The translations under genes were made by a program, and so were the position numbers. Of a stretch of DNA of 64,000 nt, positions 6,302-45,427 are shown piece after piece. This DNA comes from Eubacteriales bacterium (lineage in GTDB: Bacteria; Bacillota; Clostridia; Oscillospirales; CAG-272), in assembly GCA_045612385.1 (NCBI GenBank), contig JAZKYZ010000023.1, positions 9,766 through 73,765 on the forward strand. The letters are read 5' to 3'. Each line of letters begins with the position of its first letter. The stretch's first letter is position 1. The notes beneath the pieces are model-generated. The model had not been told where the DNA came from, did not search any database, and saw only the letters and a list, made by a program, of their open reading frames with translations.

Positions 6302-7819
6302 ATGCACATCCTGAAGGAAAAATGGCGCGAAGCCCTCGCTTCCGTCTTGCCCGTTAGCGCTATCGTGCTTCTGTTATCCATAACCATTGCCCCGATGCGC
6401 CTTTCGGTCTTTCTCTCTTTTTTGTTTGGTTCGGTGTTCCTGGTGTTTGGAATGGGACTGTTCTCACTCGGCGCAGATACGGCAATGATGCCTATGGGAG
6501 AATATGTCGGCGCTTCCTTGACAAAGATGAAGAAAATATTTCTTTTAATCCCTCTGTCTTTCTTTGTAGGACTTCTCATCACTGTATCCGAGCCTGATTT
6601 GCAGGTGCTCTCTCAGTATGCTCCTTCTATTGATTCCACTGTTCTTATTTGGTCGGTTGGTATTGGTGTCGGTGTCTTTCTTGTGCTTGCAATGCTTCGT
6701 ATTCTCTTCAATATCAAGCTTCGCATTCTCCTTCTTATCTTCTACATCCTCGCGTTCGGTATGGCGTTTTTTGTCAATCCGGATTTCTGGCCGATTGCCT
6801 TTGACGCTGGTGGCGTTACCACAGGCCCTATGACCGTTCCTTTCATTATGGCGCTTGGTACAGGTGTCAGCGCCATTCGTTCGGATAGCGACAATGCGGC
6901 GGACAGCTTTGGTCTGGTTTCCCTTTGCTCCGTCGGTCCTATTATTGCCGTCCTTTTTCTCGGTTTGATTCTTGAGCCGGAGGGCGCCTTTATTCCGATA
7001 ACCACACCGGTGGTAGACGAATCACGTGCGCTTGCTTTGGCATTCTTCGGCGCCGTTCCCCATACAATGCTGGAGGTGCTTCGTGCGCTACTCCCCATTA
7101 CGGCATTCTTCCTTGTTTATCAGTTGTTTGTAAATCGTCTGCCCTTAAAACAACTCGGTAAGATCCTCATTGGTGTGGTCTACACCTTTGTTGGTTTGAC
7201 CCTGTTTCTCACGGGCGCCAATGTCGGCTTTATGCCCGCAGGCTATGCGCTTGGTGAGATTCTCGGCGAGACGAATTTTAAATACTTAATGATTCCTATT
7301 GGTATGCTGATTGGTTACTTCATTGTAGCCGCTGAGCCTGCCGTTCAGGTCTTGCAAAAACAGGTAGAGGACATCACATCTGGCACCATTCCCCGTCGCG
7401 CTTTAGGTATCACTCTCGGTATCGGTGTTGCGATTTCCGTTGGCCTTGCGATGGTACGTGTCCTGACGGGCATATCCATTATGTATTTTTTGATCCCCTC
7501 CTATGTGATTTCATTGACCTTAACCTTTATTGTTCCCGATATTTTTACGTCAATTGCTTTCGACTCGGGTGGCGTAGCATCAGGACCAATGACAGCGACC
7601 TTCCTTCTCCCCTTTGCAATGGGAGCGTGCGTCAGCGTCGGAGGTACGATTGTTACCGACGCCTTTGGTGTTGTGGCAATGGTCGCTATGACTCCCTTGA
7701 TTGCCATTCAGATACTCGGTCTTGTATATAAGCTCAAGCTTCGTCATAGCCATAAGGTGGCAGAGGAAGAAAGAGAAGAGATTGTCGAGATTATCGAATT
7801 CTCTGAGGATTGGAGGTAA
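6302..7819 (+). CDS. DUF1538-family integral membrane protein (putative transporter)
   Basis: About 12 hydrophobic helices. An internal duplication shows paired motifs FDAGGVTTGPMTVPFIMALG and FDSGGVASGPMTATFLLPFAMG. Confidence 0.75.
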   Translation: MHILKEKWREALASVLPVSAIVLLLSITIAPMRLSVFLSFLFGSVFLVFGMGLFSLGADTAMMPMGEYVGASLTKMKKIFLLIPLSFFVGLLITVSEPDLQVLSQYAPSIDSTVLIWSVGIGVGVFLVLAMLRILFNIKLRILLLIFYILAFGMAFFVNPDFWPIAFDAGGVTTGPMTVPFIMALGTGVSAIRSDSDNAADSFGLVSLCSVGPIIAVLFLGLILEPEGAFIPITTPVVDESRALALAFFGAVPHTMLEVLRALLPITAFFLVYQLFVNRLPLKQLGKILIGVVYTFVGLTLFLTGANVGFMPAGYALGEILGETNFKYLMIPIGMLIGYFIVAAEPAVQVLQKQVEDITSGTIPRRALGITLGIGVAISVGLAMVRVLTGISIMYFLIPSYVISLTLTFIVPDIFTSIAFDSGGVASGPMTATFLLPFAMGACVSVGGTIVTDAFGVVAMVAMTPLIAIQILGLVYKLKLRHSHKVAEEEREEIVEIIEFSEDWR

Positions 7820-7822
7820 ATT

Positions 7823-8530
7823 ATGCAGAAAATGTACTTTTTTATAACCATCGCCAATCGTGCAGATGACAAGGAATTTCTTGAATTCTTTGAAAAAGAG
7901 AATGTAAAAAGCATCTATTCTACACCAGCACGTGGTACAGCGAGCAGCGCTGTTCTTGACCTTCTCGGACTTGCCGAGAGCGAAAAAACAATATACATTT
8001 CTCTCCTTCTCCACGATAAGATGAAGAGCATTATTAAAAAACTTACAAGCGAAATGTGGATTGACCTTCCGGGTCGTGGTATTGCTCTTGCTGTGCCACT
8101 TGCCAGCATTGGTGGACGAGATGCTCTTGCGCATTTTAGTGGTGGAGAGGACACCGAATCGACAAAAGAAAGTGAGGAAAAAGCTGTGGAAGCGAGAACA
8201 CAGGATAGAAAAAATGAATTGATTGTGGTAATCTGCGAGAAAGGACACACCGACCTCGTAATGGATGCTGCGCGCGCCGCTGGCGCAAGAGGTGGTACAG
8301 TTACTCGCGCCAAAGGTACAGGCGCGCAATACACCGATAAATTCTTTGGACTTTCCATTGCCGAAGAAAAAGAAATCATCTATATTGTTTCTTCAAGTGA
8401 ACACAAAGGAGAAATTATGACGCAAATTATGACGCAGGCAGGTAGCCATACCCCTGCGCACGCAGTTGTTTTCTCCCTTCCTGTTACCGATACGGCAGGA
8501 CTTCGCTTGTTTGATGAAAAGGCAGAATAA
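7823..8530 (+). CDS. Tandem P-II-like signal-transduction protein
   Basis: Two roughly 100-aa halves joined by an acidic linker. The second half (ELIVVICEKGHTDLVMDAARAAGARGGTVTRAKGTG) looks like P-II / nitrogen-regulatory protein. It starts 4 nt after the DUF1538 stop. Confidence 0.65.
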   Translation: MQKMYFFITIANRADDKEFLEFFEKENVKSIYSTPARGTASSAVLDLLGLAESEKTIYISLLLHDKMKSIIKKLTSEMWIDLPGRGIALAVPLASIGGRDALAHFSGGEDTESTKESEEKAVEARTQDRKNELIVVICEKGHTDLVMDAARAAGARGGTVTRAKGTGAQYTDKFFGLSIAEEKEIIYIVSSSEHKGEIMTQIMTQAGSHTPAHAVVFSLPVTDTAGLRLFDEKAE

Positions 8531-10829: not shown

Positions 10830-10914
10830 TGGTGGGGGAAGCTGGATTCGGACCAGCGAAGTCAGTGACAACAGATTTACAGTCTGCCCCCTTTGGCCGC
10901 TCGGGAATTCCCCC
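10830..10914 (-). tRNA. tRNA-Tyr (anticodon GTA), long variable arm, CCA encoded
   Basis: Reverse complement: GGGGGAATTCCCGAGCGGCCAAAGGGGGCAGACTGTAAATCTGTTGTCACTGACTTCGCTGGTCCGAATCCAGCTTCCCCCACCA. Acceptor stem is 7 bp (GGGGGAA/TTCCCCC). Anticodon loop is CTGTAAA. T-loop reads TCCGAAT. Confidence 0.85.
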
Positions 10915-10989
10915 TGGAGCTGGTGAACGGAGTCGAACCATCAACCTGCTGATTACAAATCAGCTGCTCTGCCATTGAGCCACACCAGC
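10915..10989 (-). tRNA. tRNA-Thr (anticodon TGT), CCA encoded
   Basis: Reverse complement: GCTGGTGTGGCTCAATGGCAGAGCAGCTGATTTGTAATCAGCAGGTTGATGGTTCGACTCCGTTCACCAGCTCCA. Acceptor stem GCTGGTG/CACCAGC. Anticodon loop TTTGTAA. T-loop TTCGACT. Confidence 0.85.
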
Positions 10990-11217: not shown

Positions 11218-12594
11218 TTACAGGGGCATCCAAGGAGTGAGGTTGTCAAGAGTTCCGTCGTCGGGTACTTCTTCGGAAGGAAGATTGACGCCACACTTGT
11301 CGCATATACCATCATTGTGTTGGTCGACGTGCTGTGACTCACGCTCGTAACCACATCCACCATTACAAGTTGTGTCGCATCCTGTTTCGTCAAAGGTGTG
11401 CGCGCCCTCGTCGTTGTGAGGCTCTGTGCAACCCTCTACGGAGCAAGTCCAGTAGTGTGTGCCGTCTTCGGTGTGATACCACTTATAATTATGAATGGTC
11501 GCGGGCGCTTCAATGGCATTGTTTTCCATATCAAACATAGCCTCGCAAACGGAACAAACCTGATGCTCTTCTGCGCCGTGAGAGGTCTCGGTTGCATCTA
11601 CTTTGTTCACTGTAGTTAATTTGTGCTCAAGCGCAGCGCCTTCAAAGGTCTTATCTTCTCCAGTTTCATTATCCTTTATGTGTACACCACATCCCTCACG
11701 AGTACATACTATATAGTACTCGGGAATATCCCCACAGGTATATGTACCGACGAAGAATTCGGGAGATTCATTTCTTCCTTCTTTATGACCGAGAGGTAAA
11801 CCTGCACTCTTTGTTGCAACGAAGGTTCGCGTTAAATCTCTCAATCCACAGTGCTCACAGGAGAAATAATAGGTTGCAGCAGTTACACAATCCCTTGGAG
11901 TTGCAACAAATTGAGGACTTTCGTATTCGCCAAAGTTGTGACCAAGAGGTTCACCTACAATAAAGGATTCACCAAGATTGCTGTTACATCTTTCACAGGA
12001 TACCCAATATTTTGCAGCAAGTTCGCAAGTCTGTGCGTTTACGATATGGTCCTCGTGTTCCTCCTGAACAGGAATGTGTCCAAGCGCAGGTGCATCCTCC
12101 ACAACGAAATACTCAGCATCGTGCTTTTCACCACATCTGTCACAGGACAGGTAGTAGGTAAGCGCCTTTTCACAGCTCTGCTCGTAGAGGAGATATTCAT
12201 CGTCCTGCTCTTCTACATAATGATGTCCGAGCGCATTGCCGTGCTCGAAGGTACCAAGATCGACATTGCAAACAGAGCAATATGCTTTATATACTGCTAC
12301 GTTTTCACAATCTGCCACAGAGATAAGGTTCGCATCAATCGCATCCTGTACCTTTGTATGTCCGAATGCAGGGTCTGCTATAAAGGTCATGGTGTCGCTG
12401 ACAACGTGACATTTTGCGCAGGATTTGTAATACTGAGCAGACTCCGTACAGGATGCACTGGAAATCAATGCTTCCGCAACGTTTCTCTCCACCCAGTCGT
12501 GTTCGCATTTGTTGGATTTTCCACAACCCGTCGCCAGTGCTAAAACAGCAAGGACGAGAAGGGAAACAACAAGAACTTTCTTAAAAATATTCAT
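11218..12594 (-). CDS. Cys/His-rich repeat lipoprotein (six ~48-aa C3H modules plus a Cys-rich tail)
   Basis: Signal peptide with lipobox MNIFKKVLVVSLLVLAVLALATGC. There are six repeats of the pattern C-x6-7-Y-[YWK]-x2-C-x2-4-C-x14-20-[LF][GE]H. No family name recognised with confidence. Confidence 0.75.
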   Translation of the reverse strand: MNIFKKVLVVSLLVLAVLALATGCGKSNKCEHDWVERNVAEALISSASCTESAQYYKSCAKCHVVSDTMTFIADPAFGHTKVQDAIDANLISVADCENVAVYKAYCSVCNVDLGTFEHGNALGHHYVEEQDDEYLLYEQSCEKALTYYLSCDRCGEKHDAEYFVVEDAPALGHIPVQEEHEDHIVNAQTCELAAKYWVSCERCNSNLGESFIVGEPLGHNFGEYESPQFVATPRDCVTAATYYFSCEHCGLRDLTRTFVATKSAGLPLGHKEGRNESPEFFVGTYTCGDIPEYYIVCTREGCGVHIKDNETGEDKTFEGAALEHKLTTVNKVDATETSHGAEEHQVCSVCEAMFDMENNAIEAPATIHNYKWYHTEDGTHYWTCSVEGCTEPHNDEGAHTFDETGCDTTCNGGCGYERESQHVDQHNDGICDKCGVNLPSEEVPDDGTLDNLTPWMPL

Positions 12595-32223: not shown

Positions 32224-32249
32224 TTGTGCGTGAGCAATTTTTGCTCCAA

Positions 32250-32336
32250 AACTTCTGCAACTGACGGATGAGTGGAAGCCGACGTGGCAAAACCACAAGG
32301 GAACAGAGGTTTCATATATGCCGACCGTCTGGGCTT
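32250..32336 (+). promoter_or_regulatory. ZTP (pfl-motif) riboswitch aptamer
   Basis: Blocks resemble the pfl/ZTP consensus. The 5' part is CAACUGACGG...GUGG..(loop)..CCACAAGGGAAC. After a linker, the 3' part is CCGACCGUCUGGGC (consensus ...CCGCCUGGGC). GACGG/CCGUC could be a compensatory pair relative to consensus GGCGG/CCGCC. It sits between the promoter and purE. Confidence 0.6.
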
Positions 32337-32379
32337 ACCGTCTTAGTGATTAGGATAGGTGCGCCCTTTTTTGTTTTTT
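32331..32379 (+). terminator. Riboswitch expression-platform terminator
   Basis: An imperfect long hairpin gggcttaccgtcttag...ttaggataggtgcgccc followed by TTTTTTGTTTTTT. Its 5' arm overlaps the conserved CUGGGC of the aptamer. Confidence 0.55.
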
Positions 32380-32412
32380 ACTCAACGCTTTGAATATAGA
32401 AAGGAAAAATCA

Positions 32413-32907
32413 ATGAAAAAAGTAGGTATCTTAATGGGAAGTGATTCCGACCTTCCTGTCATTCGTAAGGCAACAGCCGTTCTGGAGGAATTCGGCGTTC
32501 CTTATGAAGTTCACGTTTACTCTGCGCATCGCACGCCTGTGGAGGCCGCTGACTTTGCTCAAAATGCCGCATCCTGTGGCTTTGGTGTTCTGATTTGTGC
32601 GGCTGGTATGGCAGCGCACCTTGCCGGTGTGGTTGCTTCCAAAACCATTCTTCCGGTCATTGGTATTCCCTGTAAGGGCGCGAATCTGGATGGACTGGAT
32701 GCCCTCCTTTCTACCGTAATGATGCCTTCGGGCATTCCTGTGGCGACTGTCGCTGTGGATGGAGGCGCGAACGCGGCTCTGCTCGCGTGTCAGATGCTCG
32801 CTCTGTCGGATGCGTCCCTCGCTCTGGCTCTTACACAAAAGCGAGAGAGAGATCGACTGACGGTATTGGAAAAGAACAAAAAAGTAGAACTTGAATTTAA
32901 CAAATAA
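32413..32907 (+). CDS. purE: 5-(carboxyamino)imidazole ribonucleotide mutase
   Basis: [22 protein letters not shown] and GMAAHLAG motifs. The start at 32413 lies downstream of the terminator. Confidence 0.9.
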
Positions 32908-32936: not shown

Positions 32937-33617
32937 ATGAAACTTGTTTACACAGGAAAAACCAAAGATGTTTACGCTCTTGAAAATGGCAACTATCTTC
33001 TGAAATTCAAAGACGATTGCACTGGAAAAGACGGTGTGTTTGATCCAGGCGAAAACAGTGTAGGTCTTACCATTGAGGGCGTTGGTGACGTCAATTTGCG
33101 TATGTCGATTTATTTCTTTGAAAAGGTCAATGCTGCTGGTATCAAGACTCACTATATCAGTGCCGACCTTGCAAAAACCACTATGGAAGTTCTCCCTGCG
33201 AAGCCTTTTGGCAAGGGACTGGAAGTCATCTGCCGTCATAAGGCAGTCGGCTCCTTCTATCGTCGTTACAGCGACTATGTTACACTCGGTCAGGATCTTC
33301 CCGCCTATGTGGAAATGACCTTTAAAAATGATGAAAAGGGCGATCCATTGGTAACCAAAGAGGGTCTGGTATGTCTTGGTGTTATGACAGAAAAGCAGTA
33401 TGATGATGTCGCAGAAATGACAAGAAAAATCACACAGATTGTCGCAGATGATCTTCTTGAAAAGGGTCTTGTTCTCTATGATATCAAGTTTGAATTCGGC
33501 TACGACCAAAACGGTGACGTTATGCTGATCGACGAGATTGCATCAGGCAATATGCGTGTTTACAAAAACGGTGAATACATTGATCCTATGACCCTCTCCA
33601 CCCTTTTCTTTGCATAA
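32937..33617 (+). CDS. purC: SAICAR synthetase
   Basis: [14 protein letters not shown]-terminus, ~226 aa, and its position in the pur operon. Confidence 0.85.
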
Positions 33618-33628
33618 AGGAGCGTCAG

Positions 33629-35050
33629 ATGGGTGGATTTTTTGGAGCAACCCTGCGCCACGACGCCATTATGGACGTGTTCTTTGGCGTTGACTATCAT
33701 TCCCATTTAGGAAATCGTCGCGCAGGTATGGCCGCCATCAATGAGGAAGTGGGTTTTCAGCGCGAGATTCACAGCATTGAAAACTCTCCCTTCCGTACGA
33801 AATTTGAAAAAATATTTGAAGAAATGTCGGGCAATAGCGCGATTGGCTGTATCAGTGATAGTGAGCCCCAGCCTCTCCTGATGCGTTCCCGACTTGGTAC
33901 CTACGCCATCTGTATGGTGGGTATCATCAATAACGCCGATCAAATCATTCGTGAATGCCTGCCCGACGGCGTGCATTTTAACGCAATGACAGGTGGTCGG
34001 GTCAACGCTGTGGAACTGCTCTCGGCGCTTATCAACTGTAAAAGCTCCTTTGTCGAGGGAATTTCCTATGCGCAGAGCGTGATTCAGGGTACGGTGAACG
34101 TCTTGATTTTATGCGAGGATGGCTCTTTGCTTTGCGCTCGTGACAAAATGGGAAGAATTCCCGTTCTTCTCGGCAAATGCGAGGATGGCTACTGTGTCAC
34201 CTTTGAATCCTTCGCCTACGAAAAACTTGGATATACGAAAGCCTATGAGCTTGGACCGGGTGAGATTGTGTCGGTCCGACAGGATGGTTTTTCTGTGCTA
34301 AAAGAGCGTGGGGAAGAGATGCGTATCTGTGCCTTCCTCTGGTCTTACTACGGTTATCCCACCTCCTGTTATGAAGGCGTCAATGTCGAAACAATGCGTT
34401 ATCGCAATGGTGAGATTATGGCAGAAAATGACCAGAAGAGTGGCTTCTCCTCTCCTTTGGATTGTGTCGCTGGCATTCCCGATTCGGGTACCCCTCACGC
34501 CATTGGTTATGCCAATCGCTCTCGCACGCCGTTCGCTCGTCCCTTTATTAAGTACACCCCGACCTGGCCCCGTAGTTTTATCGGCGCCAAAACGGCAGAC
34601 CGTAAGCGTGTCGCCAAGATGAAGATGGTCCCTGTCAAAGAACTCATAGCAGGGAAAGATCTTCTTTTTGTAGACGATTCTATTGTGCGTGGCACACAGC
34701 TCAAGGAAACTGTCGATTTCCTTTATGACAATGGAGCAAGGAGCGTACATATGCGTTCTGCTTGCCCCCCAATTATGCACTCCTGTAAATTCTTAAACTT
34801 CACTCGTTCGACAAATGAGATGGATCTGATTGCTCGTCGCGCAGTGATGGAATTGGAAGGAGAGGAGGGCTTCCTCCACTTAGATGAATACAGTGATGGA
34901 ATGACCGAGCGTGGCAAACGTCTGCGTGTCGCCATTGCCGAAAAATTTCATTTTGCTACCCTTGATTTTCAGTCGCTTGACGGAGTGATTCGCGCGATTG
35001 GAATTGACCCCTGTAAACTTTGCACCTATTGCTGGAATGGAAAGGAATAA
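33629..35050 (+). CDS. purF: Amidophosphoribosyltransferase homologue lacking the N-terminal Cys nucleophile
   Basis: PRPP-binding motif LLFVDDSIVRGTQ. The Ntn-like N-domain is recognisable but begins MGGFFG rather than MCG. It occupies the canonical purF slot between purC and purM. Confidence 0.75.
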   Translation: MGGFFGATLRHDAIMDVFFGVDYHSHLGNRRAGMAAINEEVGFQREIHSIENSPFRTKFEKIFEEMSGNSAIGCISDSEPQPLLMRSRLGTYAICMVGIINNADQIIRECLPDGVHFNAMTGGRVNAVELLSALINCKSSFVEGISYAQSVIQGTVNVLILCEDGSLLCARDKMGRIPVLLGKCEDGYCVTFESFAYEKLGYTKAYELGPGEIVSVRQDGFSVLKERGEEMRICAFLWSYYGYPTSCYEGVNVETMRYRNGEIMAENDQKSGFSSPLDCVAGIPDSGTPHAIGYANRSRTPFARPFIKYTPTWPRSFIGAKTADRKRVAKMKMVPVKELIAGKDLLFVDDSIVRGTQLKETVDFLYDNGARSVHMRSACPPIMHSCKFLNFTRSTNEMDLIARRAVMELEGEEGFLHLDEYSDGMTERGKRLRVAIAEKFHFATLDFQSLDGVIRAIGIDPCKLCTYCWNGKE

Positions 35051-35053
35051 TAT

Positions 35054-36097
35054 ATGAATACAGAATCCAGATCAGATAGCTACGCTCTTGCTGGCGTTGA
35101 TATTACCGCAGGCTACAAAGCCGTTGAATTGATGAAAACACATATCGCTCGCACAATGCTTCACGGAGATGCTTCAGACATCGGAGGCTTTGGCGGTCTG
35201 TTTGCTCTCGACCTCACAGGTTACCAGAATCCCATTCTTGTTTCTGGTACAGATGGTGTCGGCACTAAACTCAAACTCGCCTTCCTCTTGGACAAGCACG
35301 ATACCGTAGGTATCGACTGCGTCGCAATGTGTGTGAACGACGTAATTTGTTGTGGCGCAAAGCCCCTCTTTTTCCTCGATTATATCGCTTGTGGAAAGAA
35401 CTTCCCTGAAAAGATTGCCGATATCGTTGGTGGTATCGCAGAGGGCTGCGTACAGTCGGGATGTGAGCTGATCGGTGGCGAAACTGCCGAGATGCCAGGT
35501 TTTTACCCCATTGACGAATATGACCTTGCCGGCTTCGCTGTCGGTATTGTAGATCGCAGTCAGGTGATTGACAAAACCTCGATGAAGGAAGGGGATGTGA
35601 TGATTGCCATTCCTTCCTCTGGCGTACATTCCAACGGCTTTTCACTTGTACGTCGCGTGTTTGATGTCGAAAACTGTGACCTTCGCGCACCCCTTGAGGA
35701 ACTCGGTGGTAAATCGCTTGGCGAAACCCTCCTCACCCCCACGAAAATCTATGTTAAGCCAATGCTTGCTCTGATGGAGCAGGTGAAGGTAAAGGGCATT
35801 TCCCATATTACCGGTGGTGGCTTCTATGAAAATATGCCTCGCTCCATTCCTGACGGACTGGGCGTTAAAATCAAGAAGGCAGATGTTCGCATTCTTCCTA
35901 TCTTCAAACTTCTCCAGAAGGTCGGTAATATTTCCGAGCACGATATGTTCAACACCTTTAATATGGGTGTGGGTATGTCCGTCGTTGTGGCGAAAGAGGA
36001 TGTCGAAGCGACCCTTCGTATTCTGCGCGACAATGGCGAGGATGCCTATGTCATTGGCGAGATTATCGCTGGCGATAAGAAGGTAATCATAGAATGA
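35054..36097 (+). CDS. purM: AIR synthetase
   Basis: [18 protein letters not shown] and GGETAEMPG motifs. Confidence 0.9.
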
Positions 36098-36717
36098 GAG
36101 CGCCATTAAGAGTTGCCGTTTTGGTTTCAGGTGGTGGCACGAATCTGCAAGCCCTGATAGATGCAGAGCGTTCTGGAAAAATCAAGAGTGGCACACTCTC
36201 TCTCGTTATCTCAAATAAAGAGGGAGCGTTTGCGCTTGAGCGTGCGAAAAACGCAGGAATTCCGACCGAAACGGTATTAAAGAAAGCGATTGGAAGCGCC
36301 GAAGGCTTTGAGGCGAAAATCCACTCTCTTTTAGAGGAATACAGAATTGATATCATTGTCCTGGCTGGCTTTATGTGTATTCTTTCCGAAAACTTCACCT
36401 CGCGTTATGAAAAAAGAATTCTCAATGTTCACCCCTCCCTCATTCCGTCCTTCTGTGGTGCTGGCTATTATGGACTCCGTGTCCACGAGGCGGCGCTCGC
36501 CTATGGCGTGAAGGTGACGGGAGCGACGGTCCATTTCGTAAACGAGGTGCCGGACGGTGGCGAGATTATTTTACAGAAGGCGGTATCGGTCCGAGAGGGA
36601 GATACCCCTGAACTTCTGCAAGCGCGTGTGATGCGTGAGGCAGAATGGAAGATTCTTCCTCGTGCGCTGGAGATGGTATGTAAACAGACCTCTCCCTTAT
36701 ATTCCCCTTTATATTGA
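36094..36717 (+). CDS. purN: GAR formyltransferase
   Basis: [17 protein letters not shown] and [12 protein letters not shown] motifs. The start overlaps the purM stop. Confidence 0.9.
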
Positions 36718-36736: not shown

Positions 36737-37456
36737 ATGAATATTTACGCAGTACCGAATATCAGCGAGCGTCTGCTTGGAAATCCCTATGTAGGACGTG
36801 GAATTGTCATTGGAAAAAGTGAATGTGGAAAGTATGCCGTCAGCGCCTATTTTATTATGGGTCGTTCAGAAAATAGCAGAAATCGCATTTTTACCCTTCG
36901 TGAGGATGCGCTTTACACCGAGCCTTATGATGTGAGCCGTGTAGAGGACCCCTCTTTGATTATTTATCGCGCGCTCTGCCGTCTGGATTCTCACCTGATT
37001 GTTACCAACGGTGACCAGACCGATACGATTTATGACGGAATGAAGGAAGGAAAGACCTTCTCCGAGTCCCTCCTTTGCCGTGAGTTTGAGCCGGATGCAC
37101 CGAATCTCACCCCTCGTATCAGTGGTATTCTCCACTTTGGTGAAGGGGACTTTACCTATGAGATGAGCATTCTCAAGAGCGCTGATGCTTTGGGAACGGC
37201 GTGCAATCGTTACACCTTCTCCTATCCTGCGCTTGCTGGTCTTGGACACTTCATTCACACCTATGTGACTGACGGTAATCCCATTCCTACTTTTCAGGGC
37301 GAGCCCGAGCGCGTAAAAATCCCCTCCGATATTGATGAGTTTACCAATACCATCTGGTCGACTCTGGATGAAAACAATAAGATTTCCCTCTATGTGCTTT
37401 ATACAAATTTACAAGACGGATCCACCGAATACCGTCTGATCAACAAAAATGTCTGA
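36737..37456 (+). CDS. IMP cyclohydrolase, PurO-like (archaeal type)
   Basis: A 239-aa protein immediately upstream of an AICARFT-only gene. NPYVGRGIVIG...FIMGRSENSRNR resembles the PurO/IMP_cyclohyd family (from memory). Confidence 0.6.
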   Translation: MNIYAVPNISERLLGNPYVGRGIVIGKSECGKYAVSAYFIMGRSENSRNRIFTLREDALYTEPYDVSRVEDPSLIIYRALCRLDSHLIVTNGDQTDTIYDGMKEGKTFSESLLCREFEPDAPNLTPRISGILHFGEGDFTYEMSILKSADALGTACNRYTFSYPALAGLGHFIHTYVTDGNPIPTFQGEPERVKIPSDIDEFTNTIWSTLDENNKISLYVLYTNLQDGSTEYRLINKNV

Positions 37457-37468
37457 AAGGATATAGAA

Positions 37469-38653
37469 ATGCTTGAATTTGAATTGAAATACGGTTGCAA
37501 TCCGAATCAAAAGCCTGCGAGAATTTATATGAGCGACGGCTCCCCTCTTCCAATCGAAATTCTTTGTGGCAGACCTGGATATATCAATTTTCTGGACGCC
37601 TTCAACTCCTGGCAGTTGGTAAAGGAACTCAAGGAAGCGACAGGCCTCCCTGCCGTTACCTCCTTTAAGCACGTCAGTCCTACCTCTGCTGCAGTGGGGC
37701 TTCCTCTCTCGGACACCCTGAAGCGCGCGTGCTTTGTTGACGATATCGAAAATCTTGATTCTTCTCCCCTTGCTTGCGCATATGCGCGCGCGAGAGGCAC
37801 GGACAGGATGTGTTCCTTTGGCGACTGGGTTGCTCTTTCTGATGTCTGTGACGTTACGACAGCCCTGCTGATTAAGCGTGAAGTTTCCGACGGAATTATT
37901 GCACCAGGCTATGAGCCCGAAGCATTGGAAATCCTTAAAAGCAAGAGAAAAGGAAATTATAATATTGTAAAGATTGATCCAAACTATGTACCTCACCCCA
38001 TCGAAATAAAGCAGGTATATGGTATCACCTTTGAGCAGGGAAGAAATAACTTTAAGATTGATCGCGAACTTCTCACCAATCTTGTAACCGAAAATAAAAA
38101 CCTTCCCGAAAGCGCAATTCTTGATCTTATCATTGCGCTCATTACCTTGAAATATACCCAGTCGAACTCTGTTTGTTATGCCGTAGACGGTCAGGCGATC
38201 GGTGTCGGCGCAGGTCAGCAGTCACGTATCCATTGCACAAGACTTGCTGGCACAAAGGCAGACACGTGGTTCCTTCGTCAGAGCGAAAGAGTGCTCTCCT
38301 TGCCCTTCCTTCCGACACTTGCAAGACCCGATCGAGATAACGTGATTGATGGCTACATCAATCATAACGAGGAGGATGTCACAGCAGAGGGCAACTGGCA
38401 GAAATATTTTACCACCCGTCCTGAGCCATTCACCCTTGAGGAGCAAAGAGCCTACCTTGCTACAATTCACGGTGTTTCTCTTGCTTCGGATGCGTTCTTC
38501 CCCTTCTCCGATAACATTGAACGTGCCCATTTGAGTGGCGTGGATTACATTGCAGAGCCTGGTGGCTCCATTCGTGATGATGCCGTTATCGCAAAAGCGA
38601 ATGAGTATGGTATGACGATTGCATTTACAGGAATGCGCCTGTTCCACCATTGA
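37469..38653 (+). CDS. purH: AICAR formyltransferase (PurH C-terminal domain only, no MGS-like IMPCH domain)
   Basis: LKYGCNPNQ N-terminus and a C-terminal FFPFSDNIE...GGSIRD motif typical of the AICARFT domain. At 394 aa it is shorter than the ~510 aa bifunctional PurH. Confidence 0.8.
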   Translation: MLEFELKYGCNPNQKPARIYMSDGSPLPIEILCGRPGYINFLDAFNSWQLVKELKEATGLPAVTSFKHVSPTSAAVGLPLSDTLKRACFVDDIENLDSSPLACAYARARGTDRMCSFGDWVALSDVCDVTTALLIKREVSDGIIAPGYEPEALEILKSKRKGNYNIVKIDPNYVPHPIEIKQVYGITFEQGRNNFKIDRELLTNLVTENKNLPESAILDLIIALITLKYTQSNSVCYAVDGQAIGVGAGQQSRIHCTRLAGTKADTWFLRQSERVLSLPFLPTLARPDRDNVIDGYINHNEEDVTAEGNWQKYFTTRPEPFTLEEQRAYLATIHGVSLASDAFFPFSDNIERAHLSGVDYIAEPGGSIRDDAVIAKANEYGMTIAFTGMRLFHH

Positions 38654-38700: not shown

Positions 38701-39966
38701 ATGAAAATTCTTGTTGTTGGTGGTGGTGGACGTGAGCACGCCATTATCAAAAAAATCAAAGAAAATCAAAGTGTTGAGAAAATATATGCCCTTCCCGGAA
38801 ACGGTGGTATGAGCGAGGATTGCGAATGCGTTTCGGTTTCTGCGACGGATATCGACGCCATTGTCGCTTTCGCCAAAGAGATGGCGATTGATTATGCTGT
38901 TGTTGCCCCGGACGATCCACTGGTGCTTGGTCTTGTCAATGCGCTGGATGCCGCTGGCATCCCTGCGTTTGGTCCACGTAGCGAGGCAGCGATTATCGAA
39001 GGCAGTAAGGTTTTCTCAAAAAACCTGATGAAAAAATACGGAATTCCGACAGCAAAATATGAGGTTTTTACCGACCTTTCCCTTGCGCTTGACTATTTAG
39101 AGAGCGCCCCCATCCCTACGGTAATCAAGGCGGATGGTCTTGCACTTGGTAAGGGCGTTATCATTGCAATGACCCGTGAGGAAGCCAAAGTGGCTGTTCG
39201 CTCAATGATGGAAGATCACGTTTTCGGCAAGAGTGGCGAGCGTGTCGTCATCGAAGAATTCCTTGTTGGTCCGGAAATTTCCGTTCTTGCATTCACAGAC
39301 GGTAAGTGCCTCAAACCAATGGTTTCTTCTATGGACCACAAGCGCGCCTTTGATGGCGACTTGGGACTGAATACCGGTGGAATGGGTACGGTTGCCCCCA
39401 ATCCCTATTATACCCCTGAGGTAGCAAAGCGTTGTATGGAGGAGATCTTTCTTCCGACGATCAACGCAATGAACGCCGAAGGACGTACCTTTCAAGGCTG
39501 TCTGTATTTTGGCTTGATGCTGACAGAGGACGGACCGAAGGTGATAGAGTACAACTGTCGCTTCGGTGACCCTGAAACACAGGTAGTTCTTCCTCTTTTG
39601 AAATCCGATCTTCTCACCATTATGATGGCGACAACAAACGGCACTTTGGATGCCTGTGATGTCACCTTTGGCGATGGCGCCTGCGCCTGCGTTATTATGG
39701 CATCCAACGGTTATCCTGAAAAATATGAAAAGGGATATGAAATCACCATTGCTCCAGAGGTTTTGCCATACGTGTATATCGCTGGTGCAAGAAAAGAGGG
39801 AGATGCCCTTTTGACAAATGGTGGCAGAGTGCTTGGCGTGAGCGCCGAAGCGCCCACCCTGAAAGAAGCCTTGACGCTTGCGTATGCTCGTGTTGAGCAA
39901 GTACATTTTGATAATCAATTCTATCGCCACGATATTGGCGAGCGTGCCTTGAAGGCAGGGAGATAA
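38701..39966 (+). CDS. purD: GAR synthetase
   Basis: MKILVVGGGGREHA N-terminus, ATP-grasp core and GGRVLGV C-terminal motif. Confidence 0.9.
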   Translation: MKILVVGGGGREHAIIKKIKENQSVEKIYALPGNGGMSEDCECVSVSATDIDAIVAFAKEMAIDYAVVAPDDPLVLGLVNALDAAGIPAFGPRSEAAIIEGSKVFSKNLMKKYGIPTAKYEVFTDLSLALDYLESAPIPTVIKADGLALGKGVIIAMTREEAKVAVRSMMEDHVFGKSGERVVIEEFLVGPEISVLAFTDGKCLKPMVSSMDHKRAFDGDLGLNTGGMGTVAPNPYYTPEVAKRCMEEIFLPTINAMNAEGRTFQGCLYFGLMLTEDGPKVIEYNCRFGDPETQVVLPLLKSDLLTIMMATTNGTLDACDVTFGDGACACVIMASNGYPEKYEKGYEITIAPEVLPYVYIAGARKEGDALLTNGGRVLGVSAEAPTLKEALTLAYARVEQVHFDNQFYRHDIGERALKAGR

Positions 39967-39968
39967 CT

Positions 39969-42900
39969 ATGGTATATAGAGTATATGTAGAAAAAAAGCA
40001 GGGACTTGACAACGAAGCGCGTTCTCTGCAAAGCGAGCTTTCCACCCTTCTTGGCATTCACGCTCTTACAGGCGTTCGTGTCTTGAATCGTTATGATGTG
40101 GAAAACCTCGACGAGGACCTTTTTGCCCGTACCATCACAGACGTGTTCTCGGAACCACAACTGGATTTGGCAACACGTGAGCTCTCGCTCGGGGAGGATG
40201 AAACGGTGATTGCCACCGAGTATCTTCCCGGACAGTTTGACCAAAGAGCCGATAGCGCAATGCAGTGCATTCGCCTGATGTGTCCCGAAGCGAATCCCCT
40301 CGTCAGAACAGCGAAGGTTTTTATCTTCAAAGGTAACCTTTCCACCGATGACATTCTCGCAATTAAAAAATACATCATTAACCCAGTGGAGGCAAGAGAG
40401 GCGAAACTGGAGCTTCCCGAAACGCTTGCCCTTGCCTACGAACTTCCTGAAACGGTCGAAAAAGTAGAGGGCTTTATCACCCTCGACCGTGACGGGCTGA
40501 AGTCACTTCTTGCAAAACTCGGTCTGGCAATGGATATAGATGACATTCTCTTTTGCCAAAAGTATTTTCAGGAGGAAGGCAGAGATCCCACCATTACAGA
40601 AATCCGAATGATTGACACTTACTGGTCCGACCACTGTCGTCATACGACCTTCCTGACCACGATTGACAACGTCACCTTTGAGGATGACTTGCTTCGTGAA
40701 GCGTATAATGAATATCTTGCTCTTCGCCAGCGTATTGGCAGAACCAAGCCTCAAAACCTGATGGATATTGCGACGCTTGCCGTGAAGGTTCTGCGCAGAG
40801 AGGGCAAACTGGATAAACTGGATGAATCGGAAGAAATCAACGCGTGTACCGTAAAAATGAAAGTGGAAGTGGACGGTGTATGCGAGGACTGGCTTCTTCT
40901 GTTCAAAAATGAAACACACAATCATCCCACAGAAATTGAACCCTTTGGTGGTGCTGCTACCTGTATCGGTGGCGCCATTCGTGACCCTCTTTCTGGTCGT
41001 TCCTATGTTTACGGCGCTATGCGTGTGACGGGTGCTGCCGATCCTACCGTTGCTGTGGAGGATACGATTGAAGGAAAACTTCCACAAAGAAAAATTGTCA
41101 CTACTGCGGCGGCAGGCTACTCCTCTTATGGTAACCAGATTGGTCTTGCCACAGGCATTGTAGACGAACTCTATCACCAGGGTTATGCAGCGAAGCGTAT
41201 GGAAATTGGCGCAGTGATTGCTGCTGCTCCCGCGCGTAATGTGCGTCGTGAGTGCCCTGTGGATGGCGACGTAGTCATCCTTCTTGGTGGACGTACTGGC
41301 AGAGATGGCTGTGGTGGCGCGACGGGCTCCTCGAAAAAGCACACCCTCACCTCCCTTGAGAGCTGTGGCGCAGAGGTCCAAAAGGGAAATGCCCCTGAGG
41401 AAAGAAAACTTCAGCGCCTGTTCCGTAACTATGAAGCTTGTCGTATGATCAAGCGCTGTAACGACTTTGGCGCAGGTGGTGTCTCTGTTGCAATCGGTGA
41501 ACTTGCCGACGGTCTTGACATTAACCTCAATGCCGTTCCTAAAAAATATGAAGGCCTTGATGGCACCGAACTTGCGATTTCCGAATCGCAGGAGCGAATG
41601 GCTGTCGTAGTGGAAAAAGAAAATGTAGAACGCTTTATGGCGCTCGCTGAAAGCGAAAACCTTGAGGCGACAGTGGTCGCTTTTGTGACGGAGGAAAAAC
41701 GCCTTCGTATGCACTGGAATGGTGTAACGATTGTCGATCTTTCTCGTGATTTCCTGAACTCAAACGGCGCAGAAAAGCATATTGATATCTCTCCTGCAAA
41801 GCCTCTCTCCTACGAAAAAGCGAGCGTTGCTTCCTTTGAGGAAGGCTATCTTGCTCTTGCAGAGGATCTCAACGTTTGTTCAAAACGTGGACTCAGCGAG
41901 CGTTTCGATTCCACCATTGGAGCCGGCACTGTCCTGATGCCATTTGGTGGTAAGCACCAAGCGACGCCCATTCAGGCAATGGTGCAGAAGATTTCCGTTG
42001 AAGAAAAGCACACCAATACCTGCTCTTATATGGCTTGGGGCTATAACCCCTATATCGCAGAGAAAAGCCCCTATCATTCAGCATACCTCGCTGTTGTAGA
42101 AAGTGTAGCGAAGTTGATCGCTACGGGCGCGAGCTTCTCGGACACCTACCTTACCTTCCAGGAATATTTTGAAAAGCCTGGACGGGATGGCAAGCGTTGG
42201 GGCAAGCCCTTCGCCGCACTTCTCGGCGCACTGAAGGCGCAGATGGATCTTGGCATTGGCGCTATTGGTGGCAAGGACTCAATGAGTGGATCCTTTGAAG
42301 ACTTGGATGTTCCTCCTACTCTGGTTTCCTTCGCCGTTACCACAGGCAATGTGGACGAGGTCATCACAGGCGAATTCAAAAAGGCGGGACACTCCCTTGT
42401 GCATCTTGCGCCTGAATATGACGAAAACGGTTTGCCGAAGAAGGAGAGCCTTCTCGCCCTCTTCGATCGTGTCACCACTCTTATGAGAGAGGGAAAGGTC
42501 TTTGCCTCTTACACGCCTACCTATGGTGGCATAGCTGAAGCAGTGCTGAAAATGTCACTTGGCAATGGTCTTGGTTTCTCCTACTCTCCCTGTGTATCGC
42601 TGGATAGCATTTTTGGCTACGCCTATGGCTCCTTCCTTCTTGAAGTAGAGGATGCGTCACTTGGTACGCTCATTGGTACCATCACAGATACAGCCGAAAT
42701 TACCTACGGTGACACAACAATTTCCCTTGAAAAGTTAATAAAAGTTTACAATAGCAAGCTCGAAGGCGTATATCCGACGCTTGAGGGTGACAATGCGAAG
42801 CGCCTTGAAACCTTCTCGTTTGAGAGAAAGAAAGCCATTCCTTCCCCTGCGATCAAGGTGGCGAAGCCTCGTGTGCTGATTCCTGTATTCCCTGGTACAA

Positions 42901-43664
42901 ACTGCGAATACGACTCGGCGAAGGTAATGCGCGACGCTGGCGCTATCCCTGAAATTTTTGTAATCAACAACCAGTCGGAGGACGGAATCAAACGTTCGGT
43001 GGAAGCCTTCTCACAAAGACTTTCCGAGTCACAGATGGTATTTGTTCCCGGTGGCTTTTCGGGCGGTGACGAGCCGGATGGTTCGGGTAAATTCATTATG
43101 GCATTCTTCCGTAATCCTTCTGTGAAGGAGCAAATCCATACCCTCCTTGATCGTCGTGACGGCTTGATGTGTGGTATCTGTAATGGCTTCCAGGCTCTTG
43201 TTAAACTGGGACTTGTCCCCTACGGTCATATTATGGATGCCGACGAGAATGCGCCTACACTTACCTTCAATACCATCGCGCGTCACCAGTCGAAGATCGT
43301 TCGTGTACGAATTGCCTCCAATGCTTCCCCTTGGCTCTCGCATACGAAGGTTGGTGAGATTTATTCCGTTCCGATCTCTCACGGAGAAGGTCGTTTCCTC
43401 GCCAGTGATGAGGTGGTACGTGCTCTTTCTGAAAACGGACAGATCGCTACCCAGTATGTTGACCTCGAAGGCTTTGCGACGGATGATGTTCGCTACAATC
43501 CGAACAATTCGGTTTATGGCATTGAGGGCATCCTCTCGCCCGATGGTCGTGTAATTGGTAAGATGGGACACAGCGAGCGTATCGGCTATGGTTTATACAA
43601 AAATGTGCTTGGCGAATATGATATGGGTATGTTCCAGAGCGCAGTAGAGTACTTCAAAAAATAA
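39969..43664 (+). CDS. purL: FGAM synthase, single-chain large form (PurS/PurL/PurQ fused)
   Basis: 1231 aa. ETHNHPTEIEPFGGAATCIGG motif. The C-terminal GATase has GICNGFQAL (Cys) and ISHGEGRF (His/Glu). Confidence 0.9.
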   Translation: MVYRVYVEKKQGLDNEARSLQSELSTLLGIHALTGVRVLNRYDVENLDEDLFARTITDVFSEPQLDLATRELSLGEDETVIATEYLPGQFDQRADSAMQCIRLMCPEANPLVRTAKVFIFKGNLSTDDILAIKKYIINPVEAREAKLELPETLALAYELPETVEKVEGFITLDRDGLKSLLAKLGLAMDIDDILFCQKYFQEEGRDPTITEIRMIDTYWSDHCRHTTFLTTIDNVTFEDDLLREAYNEYLALRQRIGRTKPQNLMDIATLAVKVLRREGKLDKLDESEEINACTVKMKVEVDGVCEDWLLLFKNETHNHPTEIEPFGGAATCIGGAIRDPLSGRSYVYGAMRVTGAADPTVAVEDTIEGKLPQRKIVTTAAAGYSSYGNQIGLATGIVDELYHQGYAAKRMEIGAVIAAAPARNVRRECPVDGDVVILLGGRTGRDGCGGATGSSKKHTLTSLESCGAEVQKGNAPEERKLQRLFRNYEACRMIKRCNDFGAGGVSVAIGELADGLDINLNAVPKKYEGLDGTELAISESQERMAVVVEKENVERFMALAESENLEATVVAFVTEEKRLRMHWNGVTIVDLSRDFLNSNGAEKHIDISPAKPLSYEKASVASFEEGYLALAEDLNVCSKRGLSERFDSTIGAGTVLMPFGGKHQATPIQAMVQKISVEEKHTNTCSYMAWGYNPYIAEKSPYHSAYLAVVESVAKLIATGASFSDTYLTFQEYFEKPGRDGKRWGKPFAALLGALKAQMDLGIGAIGGKDSMSGSFEDLDVPPTLVSFAVTTGNVDEVITGEFKKAGHSLVHLAPEYDENGLPKKESLLALFDRVTTLMREGKVFASYTPTYGGIAEAVLKMSLGNGLGFSYSPCVSLDSIFGYAYGSFLLEVEDASLGTLIGTITDTAEITYGDTTISLEKLIKVYNSKLEGVYPTLEGDNAKRLETFSFERKKAIPSPAIKVAKPRVLIPVFPGTNCEYDSAKVMRDAGAIPEIFVINNQSEDGIKRSVEAFSQRLSESQMVFVPGGFSGGDEPDGSGKFIMAFFRNPSVKEQIHTLLDRRDGLMCGICNGFQALVKLGLVPYGHIMDADENAPTLTFNTIARHQSKIVRVRIASNASPWLSHTKVGEIYSVPISHGEGRFLASDEVVRALSENGQIATQYVDLEGFATDDVRYNPNNSVYGIEGILSPDGRVIGKMGHSERIGYGLYKNVLGEYDMGMFQSAVEYFKK

Positions 43665-43753
43665 AAAACGCAGGTGCTCCACTTTGTGGTGGAGCGCCGA
43701 AAACTTAAATTTTGTGGGGCGTTCTCGCGCCCCTTTATGAAAGGGTAACAATT

Positions 43754-45427
43754 ATGGCACAGCTTTCTGATATCGAAATTGCGCAGGGTGCGAAAATGCT
43801 CCCCATTACCACCATTGCCGAAAAACTCGGCATTGATGGCGAGCTTGTTGAGCCTTATGGAAAATACAAAGCAAAACTTGACCTCTCCTTAATGCAAACT
43901 TCTCGTAAGGAGGGAAAATTGATTTTGGTTACTGCCATCACCCCTACCCCTGCCGGTGAGGGAAAAACCACCACGACCATTGGTCTGGCTGACGGTCTGT
44001 CCCGTCTTGGAAAAAAGACGGTAGTGGCACTGCGTGAGCCCTCGCTCGGACCGGTATTCGGCATCAAGGGTGGCGCAGCAGGAGGTGGCTATGCGCAGGT
44101 AGTGCCTATGGAGGACATCAACCTGCACTTCACAGGTGACTTCCACGCCATTGGCGCAGCGAACAACCTTCTCGCAGCAATGCTCGATAACCACATTTAT
44201 CAAGGCAATCGCCTGAACATTGATCCACGTCGCATCACTTGGAAGCGTTGTGTGGATATGAACGACCGTCAGCTTCGTTTTGTTACGGATGGTCTTGGTG
44301 GCAGAGTGAACGGCGTTCCTCGCGAGGATGGCTTTGATATCACTGTCGCATCCGAGATTATGGCAGTCTTTTGTCTTGCTTCCTCGATTGAGGATCTGAA
44401 GGCAAGGCTTTCTCGTATCGTGGTCGCATACACCTATAACGAAGAGCCCATCACTGCTGGTGATTTGGGCGCGGTCGGTGCAATGACGGCACTGCTAAAG
44501 GATGCCATCAAGCCCAATCTCGTGCAGACGCTCGAAGGTACGCCCGCCCTTGTTCACGGTGGACCATTTGCTAATATCGCGCACGGATGCAACTCTGTCA
44601 TTGCGACAAAACTTGCTCTTGCGCTCGGCGATTATGCGATAACAGAGGCTGGCTTCGGCGCAGATCTCGGCGCAGAAAAATTCCTTGACATCAAATGTCG
44701 TATGGCAGGTCTTGCCCCCTCTGCCGTTGTTGTTGTAGCGACGGTGCGCGCCTTGAAGATGCACGGTGGCGTTCCCAAAACCGAACTTTCTGGCGAAAAT
44801 CTGGAAGCGCTCGCAAAGGGACTTCCGAATCTCCTTCGTCACGTGAAGAATATGAGAGAAGTTTACAAACTTCCTTGTGTCGTTGCTGTTAACCGTTTCC
44901 CCACCGATACAGATGCAGAAATTGCCCTCGTCATTGAAAAATGCAAGGAGCTCGGTGTCAACGTGTCACTCTCTACCGTCTGGGCAGAAGGTGGCAAGGG
45001 TGGAGAAGAGCTGGCTCGTGAGGTGATTCGCCTTTGTGAAGAAGAAAAGGGTGATTTTACCTTCTCATATGAGCTTGATACTACCATTGTTGAAAAAATT
45101 GAAGCGATTGTAAAGAAGGTCTACGGTGGCTGTGGCGTAGTTCTCACGCCTCAGGCGAAAAAGCAGCTCACAACCCTTGAAGCGCACGGCTTTGGTCAAC
45201 TTCCTGTCTGTATGGCAAAAACACAGTATTCCTTCTCGGATGACCCGACAAAACTGGGTGCGCCCGAAGGCTTTACCGTTACTGTTCGTAACCTGAAGGT
45301 AAGCGCAGGCGCTGGCTTCGTGGTTGCCCTGACTGGAGATATTATGACAATGCCGGGACTTCCTAAAGTTCCTTCGGCAGAAAAAATTGATGTCGACGAA
45401 AACGGAAGAATCACAGGTCTTTTCTAA
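43754..45427 (+). CDS. fhs: Formate--tetrahydrofolate ligase
   Basis: SDIEIAQ N-terminus and P-loop [16 protein letters not shown] prefer the start at 43754 (MAQLSDIE). Confidence 0.9.

Follow-up and report, generated by a model that had tools for sequence, protein, structure and literature searches.

Can the first step of purine synthesis be carried out by an enzyme that has lost the residues with which its family takes nitrogen from glutamine? The committed and regulated step of this pathway is that of PurF, which textbooks present as a glutamine amidotransferase. The question is raised by a 64-kb stretch of DNA from a Eubacteriales bacterium (contig JAZKYZ010000023.1; analysed at its full 64,000 nucleotides and hereafter called the window), in which the purF position of a purine operon is held by a gene for a PurF-family protein without the N-terminal cysteine. 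Databases name its product as an ordinary glutamine-dependent amidophosphoribosyltransferase (EC 2.4.2.14). We refer to the protein as PurFx, a name that also covers the family sharing its motif G-T/V-D-Y-H-S-H-L-G, and we argue that it is, with a probability of roughly 0.6, a working ammonia-dependent phosphoribosylamine (PRA) synthase.

Loss of the glutaminase residues

The residues of PurFx were compared with those of the canonical enzyme in an alignment with Bacillus subtilis PurF and in a second alignment with two canonical PurFs of related Clostridia and Escherichia coli b2312. Cys1 of canonical PurF, the N-terminal nucleophile (Ntn), is replaced by Gly2, and the LQHRGQ motif (Arg26) by H26-L27-G28, in which the histidine and glycine are retained and the arginine has become leucine. 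The HNG oxyanion hole reads M96-V97-G98, its asparagine gone and its glycine retained. Two further losses extend what the first-pass annotation had recorded: the GHVRYxTxG glutamine loop, which holds Arg73, Tyr74 and Thr76, has been removed by an 8-residue deletion (GCI--SD), and Asp127 of SDTE corresponds to N126/A127. That annotation had described the Cys1, Arg and Asn-Gly positions as all replaced, which is borne out for Cys1, Arg and Asn and not for the glycine, since Gly98 is retained in the alignment. Because the nucleophile, the oxyanion asparagine and the substrate-binding arginine and aspartate are all missing, canonical Ntn glutaminase chemistry should be impossible in PurFx, and canonical glutamine-dependent activity is predicted, from sequence, to be absent.

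Equally important is the state of the phosphoribosyltransferase (PRTase) half, which had been called intact and proves to be so. The phosphoribosyl pyrophosphate (PRPP) motif VDDSIVRGTQ (348-357), the pyrophosphate (PPi) loop PDSG (284-287) and the flexible-loop residues K308 and R315 match the canonical rows, and R325 and K332 are also kept. The C-terminal cysteines, previously regarded as extra, are in two cases (C465 and C468) standard [4Fe-4S] ligands of the B. subtilis type, and the idea that they form a novel metal site was accordingly dropped. Together with C234 and C386 they align with the four ligands of B. subtilis PurF (Cys236, 382, 437 and 440), the positions having been matched by alignment. 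Conservation in the family is complete or almost complete at all four (C468 invariant, C465 kept in at least 90%); C462 is not conserved.

On the level of profiles and predicted structure, PurFx is recognisably a PurF and not a typical one. The purF equivalog model TIGR01134 scores it at 152.4 bits, below its cut-off of 350, and with Pfam only GATase_7 (weakly, at 28 bits) and, below threshold, Pribosyltran are picked up. The best sequence match in the PDB is B. subtilis PurF (1AO0/1GPH; E 1.5e-39, residues 3-414 aligned). An AlphaFold2 model built on a 26-sequence alignment reached a mean per-residue confidence (pLDDT) of 92.7 and a predicted template-modelling score (pTM) of 0.91; in Foldseek it matched the PurF of B. 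subtilis, Arabidopsis and E. coli (1ao0, 6lbp, 1ecb) over its full length at template-modelling (TM) scores of 0.80-0.85, and GlmS and GFAT through the Ntn domain only. As modelled, PurFx is thus a complete two-domain PurF fold, with an Ntn alpha-beta-beta-alpha sandwich followed by a type I PRTase. Its N-terminal domain is marked by the motif G20-V-D22-Y23-H24-S25-H26-L27-G28, an I-S76-D77 segment, V97-G98 and N126. In the alignment, all PurFx family members carry an insertion of about 50 residues that is present neither in canonical PurF nor in a PurF of intermediate type, P0262, described below. The alignments, the profile scores, the predicted structure and the comparison of genomes all agree with the earlier proposal of a dead Ntn site in an enzyme that is not glutamine-dependent in the canonical way.

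The assignment of the start codon bears directly on the missing cysteine. PurFx begins MGGFFGATLRHD and its second codon is GGT, so that the reported MGGFFG start, with GGT after ATG, is found both in the open reading frame (ORF) and in the Gly2 of the relatives. Glycine stands at position 2 in 230 of 232 close relatives of 465-480 aa, and the motif DY[HNQ]SH[LM]G is present in all 234 of the 234 inspected for it; because motif and Gly2 are kept across close relatives, the start site is taken as correct. Upstream, the frame is closed by a TGA at 33581-33583, and neither the sequence nor the ORF list holds an ATG, GTG or TTG in this frame between that stop and 33629. The purC stop (TAA, 33615-33617) lies 11 nt before the ATG. 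The first-pass annotation had excluded both an upstream extension and a cysteine: the extension is indeed impossible, but a cysteine codon does exist, as an in-frame TGC at 33611-33613, six codons before the ATG and inside the end of purC. An upstream start with a hidden propeptide cysteine was nonetheless rejected, since the frame is closed and lacks a start codon, and the TGC is untranslatable and out of register with Cys1.

An old and widespread family

PurFx had been noted as a single odd gene; it turns out to be one member of a very large, ancient and conserved family. A word-indexed sequence search returned 8000 matches, of which the top 120 are 69-100% identical to PurFx, and an exhaustive HMMER scan of 1.84 billion representatives gave 506 clusters at E<1e-30. 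In a collection holding one genome per species, a family-specific pattern retrieved at least 599 relatives, the closest at 70% identity, and the best 80 of these were used for all locus comparisons. The 80 loci come from Clostridia of gut and rumen that are uncultured (Acutalibacteraceae, Oscillospiraceae, Christensenellales and "Ruminococcus"). PurFx also occurs in Muribaculaceae, where it adjoins purL, and in one bacterium with multihaem cytochromes.

In full-length representatives with identities as low as about 31%, the sequence always begins M-[GSTA]-G-x-x-G and includes G-[TV]-D-Y-H-S-H-L-G. Among 25 diverse members, position 2 is serine in 11, glycine in 8, and threonine, alanine, lysine or aspartate in one each, and never cysteine; position 97, the site of the oxyanion asparagine, is highly variable, and D22, Y23, H26, S76, N102 and N126 are near-invariant. 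Mean pairwise identity in this set is 36% for the N-terminal domain and 43% for the PRTase core, values by which the N-terminal domain is judged to be under purifying selection. Pairs of PurFx share 35-67% identity, pairs of PurFx and canonical PurF 25-32%, and pairs of canonical PurFs 38-49%. By these comparisons PurFx is an old, large family in which the losses of glutaminase residues are fixed. Recent decay to a pseudogene was rejected, the family being huge, conserved at 35-67%, only 25-32% identical to canonical PurF and constrained in its N-terminal domain. Two candidate features of that domain were likewise discarded: a conserved substitute nucleophile in the form of serine or threonine at position 2, as the position is variable and glycine in this clade, and a fixed His-x-His metal motif in DYHSH, as H24 varies (H, N, Q, L).

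Only one of the top 150 representatives at 50% identity, P0262 (about 190 bits), combines QHRG with an in-register cysteine. It is an intermediate type of PurF, with a propeptide and cysteine, LQHRGQ, and the RGTQ of PurFx; it lacks the Arg73/Tyr74 loop and the helical insertion, reads FSGN for HNGN, and shares 32-41% identity with PurFx and 35-38% with canonical PurF. It may represent a third class or an evolutionary link. Another representative that matches the cysteine pattern, P0127, is an AsnB-PurFx chimera and probably an assembly artefact, and a long member, P0129, carries TPR repeats; the fused domains of these two longer members were not informative.

Outside the purine operons, several gene settings were recorded. 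The archaeal members (L082, 4882-6297; L085, 10001-11386) lie just downstream of PolD DP2 and upstream of a TctA-family gene, with synteny kept on two contigs; because they stand next to PolD, they are not from Crenarchaeota. In L049 (4901-6325) PurFx is found beside an M20 peptidase, an AraC regulator and a PfkB kinase, and in L055 (10001-11425) beside a radical SAM protein and a GH31 fragment, with no pur operon in either case.

Exchange of PurFx and canonical purF in one operon slot

The evidence that carries the functional argument comes from the position of the gene. The operon of the window reads ZTP riboswitch, purE-purC-PurFx-purM-purN-purO-purH-purD-purL-fhs, and PurFx is the sole candidate for step 1 in it. 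The same gene neighbours surround PurFx in 78 of the 80 related loci, and in 73 of the 80 it occupies the slot alone. In the five loci L013, L025, L045, L072 and L074 a canonical purF directly follows PurFx, starting in L013 only 1-2 nt after the PurFx stop. The canonical translations of L013 and L045 show a propeptide and CGVFG, LQHRGQES, GH[VA]RY.TTG, AHNGNL and D[ST]EV at the Asp127 site.

The converse arrangement was found in all four sampled canonical clusters (those of the closest canonical PurFs, P0418, P0519, P0458 and P0435, from Acutalibacteraceae, Oscillospiraceae and Clostridia; within L089-L098), where purF stands alone between purC and purM and no PurFx is present in the flanks; purO and the gene for 5-aminoimidazole-4-carboxamide ribonucleotide (AICAR) formyltransferase follow in three of the four. 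A ZTP riboswitch precedes purE in every state of the slot, whether occupied by PurFx only (the window, L008), by the tandem pair (L045) or by canonical purF only (L089, L093). Since many Clostridia have canonical PurFs that are 75-80% identical, counts of close homologues are uninformative on co-occurrence. That one slot of a conserved, co-regulated operon can be filled by either paralogue or by both argues for in-situ displacement between functionally equivalent genes, of which it is the signature, and for delivery of PRA to PurD by PurFx.

Proposed function and mechanism

As an ammonia-dependent PRA synthase, PurFx would bind PRPP in its PRTase domain, where ammonia would displace pyrophosphate as in canonical PurF. 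The ammonia would be taken from the medium or cytosol and not from glutamine hydrolysis at an N-terminal cysteine; free NH3 is the presumed nitrogen donor. The old glutamine pocket, with its loop deleted, could serve as an open site of entry or recruitment for NH3/NH4+ into the former inter-domain channel, where NH4+ may be recruited or deprotonated by the Asp, Tyr, Ser, Asn and His residues that are newly conserved in the pocket. Such a role would explain the conservation of the new pocket residues D22, Y23, H26, S76, D77 and N126. Ammonia in gut and rumen is in the millimolar range, and in these ammonia-rich, energy-poor settings the bypass of glutamine synthetase would save one ATP per PRA, while genomes with tandem genes could switch between nitrogen regimes.

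The chemistry itself has precedents, as PurF accepts free NH3 as an alternative substrate. In E. coli PurF, replacement of Cys1 by Ala or Ser abolishes the activity with glutamine and leaves that with ammonia (Mei and Zalkin 1989, as relayed in PMC3261824). For PPAT, the use of ambient NH3 is described, along with a proposal that NH3 from outside gains access by way of the glutamine site (PMC12017579).

Several considerations weigh against this proposal. A canonical purF may exist elsewhere in the genome, the search having covered the 64-kb window out of a contig of at least 110 kb. The five loci that retain canonical purF beside PurFx, and the Crenarchaeota that keep PurF together with PurF' (see below), imply that the two are not always redundant. 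The archaeal members examined and two of the 80 bacterial loci lie outside pur clusters. Passive entry of ammonia would not obviously call for new near-invariant pocket residues or for a conserved 50-residue helical insertion, which hints at a further function. Finally, no enzymatic or genetic data on any PurFx member were found in the full-text literature, a body of text that lacked most subscription-journal papers.

Comparison with known systems

The closest known counterpart is the [4Fe-4S] PurF of B. subtilis (1AO0, 1GPH), the best match in sequence and one of the top matches of the model (TM 0.81-0.84), with the same combination of Ntn and type I PRTase domains. The two proteins share the four Fe-S cysteines, the PDSG, K...R and DDSIVRGT motifs and the slot between purC and purM. 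At 26% identity, however, PurFx differs from it in lacking a propeptide, in having Gly for Cys1, HLG for HRG, MVG for HNG and RGTQ for RGTT, in the 8-residue deletion of the Arg73/Tyr74 loop and the loss of Asp127, and in the insertion of about 50 residues (396-445). The Cys1 mutants of E. coli PurF, as far as they are reported in the citing source, resemble PurFx in having no nucleophile, and PurFx looks like a natural, fixed version of them; they retain the other residues of the glutamine site, whereas the PurFx pocket is wholly rebuilt, with new conserved residues. E. coli PurF also has no Fe-S cluster, unlike PurFx with its four ligands.

Another point of comparison is crenarchaeal PurF', a PurF-like protein with Ala or Val for the N-terminal cysteine and encoded in purine-gene clusters (Brown, Hoopes, White and Sarisky 2011, Biol Direct 6:63; PMC3261824). 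It was put forward there, as a hypothesis, as an ammonia-dependent PRPP aminotransferase. PurFx fits the definition of PurF', being a PurF homologue without the N-terminal cysteine in a purine-gene cluster, a likeness drawn from the published description of PurF'. PurF' is described in Crenarchaeota only and always beside canonical PurF, whereas PurFx is here bacterial, has the operon slot to itself in the majority of species, and is very common in gut Clostridia and in Muribaculaceae. Full-text searches of the literature yielded no paper on the bacterial PurFx family, neither the Fibro-purF riboswitch paper nor the thiC-purF clostridial paper contained anything on it, and crenarchaeal PurF' is the nearest and only published precedent that was found.

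More distant parallels exist among steps that have glutamine-using and free-ammonia-using forms, such as AsnB and AsnA, or the single-domain NH3-dependent NAD+ synthetase NadE, whose use of ammonia is also a topic of PMC6946656. In these the glutamine form and the ammonia form are found in different organisms, a logic proposed here for canonical PurF and PurFx as well. Their ammonia-using forms have no glutaminase domain or belong to unrelated folds, whereas PurFx retains the domain in a remodelled and conserved state.

Alternative explanations

PurFx could instead be an accessory or regulatory pseudo-amidotransferase paralogue and partner of a canonical PurF encoded elsewhere, whether by joining a hetero-oligomer, by serving as its nucleotide-sensing subunit or by accepting ammonia that escapes from the canonical glutaminase. 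The tandem pairs in five of 80 loci, with the 1-2 nt spacing of L013, would suit such a partnership, as would the constant company of PurF' and PurF in Crenarchaeota (PMC3261824), and both the conserved N-terminal domain and the helical insertion could be interaction surfaces, while a search confined to the window leaves room for a canonical purF in the rest of the genome. We nonetheless regard this explanation as unlikely, since 73 of the 80 related operons have no canonical partner nearby, all four sampled canonical purF genes occupy the very same slot, which speaks for displacement and not partnership, and the PRPP motif, the PPi loop and the Lys and Arg of the flexible loop show the conservation seen in active enzymes. 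More doubtful still is that PurFx makes PRA with a remodelled N-domain pocket serving as a new active or docking site, either for non-Ntn release of ammonia from another donor or for ammonia fed by a partner. Near-invariant polar residues (D22, Y23, H26, S76, D77, N126) do lie on loops lining the canonical glutamine pocket, and many distant members have at position 2 a Ser or Thr, which are nucleophiles in other Ntn hydrolases; yet this position is unconserved (G, S, T, A, K, D), H24 varies (H, N, Q, L) so that no fixed His-x-His metal site results, the oxyanion position 97 is highly variable, and no conserved gene for a candidate partner was seen in the 80 loci. The E. coli C1S mutant is moreover inactive with glutamine, as cited in PMC3261824.

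A different phosphoribosyl transfer without PRA as product, or a non-functional relic, would accord with the score below the purF equivalog cut-off and with members outside pur clusters (archaeal L082 and L085; bacterial L049, L055 and L084). A relic is excluded by strong conservation in two domains of life and thousands of clusters, and another reaction fits poorly with a slot directly upstream of purM, in company with purD and in alternation with canonical purF, or with a protein closest in sequence and fold to PurF only; the two together are thus highly improbable. An ammonia-dependent PRA synthase remains the preferred reading. A bolder reading, for which the odds are long, is that the former glutaminase pocket, with its new near-invariant residues, its 8-residue loop deletion and the helical insertion peculiar to the family, has been rebuilt into a new functional site and that PurFx is the sole purine route in hundreds of gut and rumen species; such a site may be a vestibule that captures and deprotonates ammonium (Amt-like in its logic), may catalyse the use of a nitrogen donor that is not glutamine, or may sense nitrogen status and gate purine synthesis accordingly.

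Operon context and other features of the window

The features of the PurFx locus are collected in Table 1. The ZTP riboswitch presumably controls the whole pur-fhs operon. No second PurF homologue was found by tblastn in the 64-kb window, the remainder of the genome being outside this search. Because the formylglycinamidine ribonucleotide (FGAM) synthase PurL keeps its glutaminase cysteine (GICNGFQ), the organism evidently still uses glutamine in general. For the PurO-like gene, Pfam IMP_cyclohyd is recorded in the L089 homologue.

Table 1. Coordinates of PurFx, its domains and the surrounding purine operon in the window
Feature	Position	Strand	Basis and remarks
ZMP/ZTP riboswitch aptamer	32247..32341	+	Rfam RF01750, 56.5 bits against a gathering score of 39; ahead of operon
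purE	32359..32907	+	TIGR01162, 185.9 bits
purC, short divergent type	32937..33617	+	TIGR00081, 117.6 bits, below cut-off of 189.9
Ribosome-binding site AGGAG	33618..33622	+	6 nt before PurFx ATG; direct reading
PurFx (Cys-less PurF-family protein)	33629..35050	+	473 aa plus stop; ORF list
N-terminal Ntn-fold domain, glutaminase residues lost	33629..34318	+	residues 1-230; alignments, column counts
Type I PRTase core	34319..34813	+	residues 231-395; invariant or near-invariant columns, alignment to 1ao0
Family-specific helical insertion	34814..34963	+	residues ~396-445; gap in all canonical rows; modelled helices 401-422 and 427-440
C-terminal tail with C465, C468 and non-conserved C462	34964..35047	+	alignment to CGQCLAC of 1ao0
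purM	35054..36097	+	TIGR00878, 445 bits
purN	36094..36717	+	TIGR00639, 198 bits
PurO-like inosine monophosphate (IMP) cyclohydrolase	36737..37456	+	partial NF003167 and TIGR01922 matches, below cut-offs
AICAR formyltransferase (PurH without IMP cyclohydrolase domain)	37469..38653	+	NF005492, 667 bits
purD (uses up PRA)	38701..39966	+	TIGR00877, 515 bits
Large FGAM synthase, intact glutaminase domain	39969..43664	+	TIGR01857, 1842 bits; GICNGFQ from residue 1069
Formate-tetrahydrofolate ligase (fhs)	43712..45427	+	NF010030, 945 bits

The purC slot is a second variable slot of the same operon. The window has a purC of the short type, with 226 aa, and in this place the related loci have either the short type, at 74-89% identity, a standard type with about 236-240 aa and about 30% identity, or no purC. 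The last two purine steps of the window (36737-38653, + strand) are assigned to the PurO-like IMP cyclohydrolase and a PurH with the AICAR formyltransferase function alone, and no bifunctional PurH is present in the operon. Such variation in these two steps across prokaryotes has been described (PMC6486802).

Elsewhere in the window, the gene for a 505-aa DUF1538 membrane protein precedes one for a protein of 235 aa whose C-terminal domain is P-II-like (6302-8530, + strand), and a 458-aa ORF (11218-12594, - strand) with no Pfam match at E<=1e-5 adjoins two tRNA genes (10833-10989, - strand).

Significance

These observations are best explained if PurFx is a naturally occurring and widespread PurF with a dead glutaminase, one that takes the place of canonical PurF in situ. 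If this is true, a large share of gut and rumen Clostridia, Muribaculaceae and some archaea put free ammonia straight into purines; the stoichiometry and ATP cost of the pathway would change in metabolic models of PurFx carriers, purine N9 would be labelled from ammonium and not from the glutamine amide, and step 1 would be insensitive to the cysteine-alkylating glutamine analogues 6-diazo-5-oxo-L-norleucine (DON), azaserine and acivicin. The name amidophosphoribosyltransferase (EC 2.4.2.14) would, by the same token, be wrong for thousands of sequences. PurFx would thus represent a natural experiment, in which an Ntn glutaminase domain has abandoned its chemistry and been retained and remodelled, not deleted.

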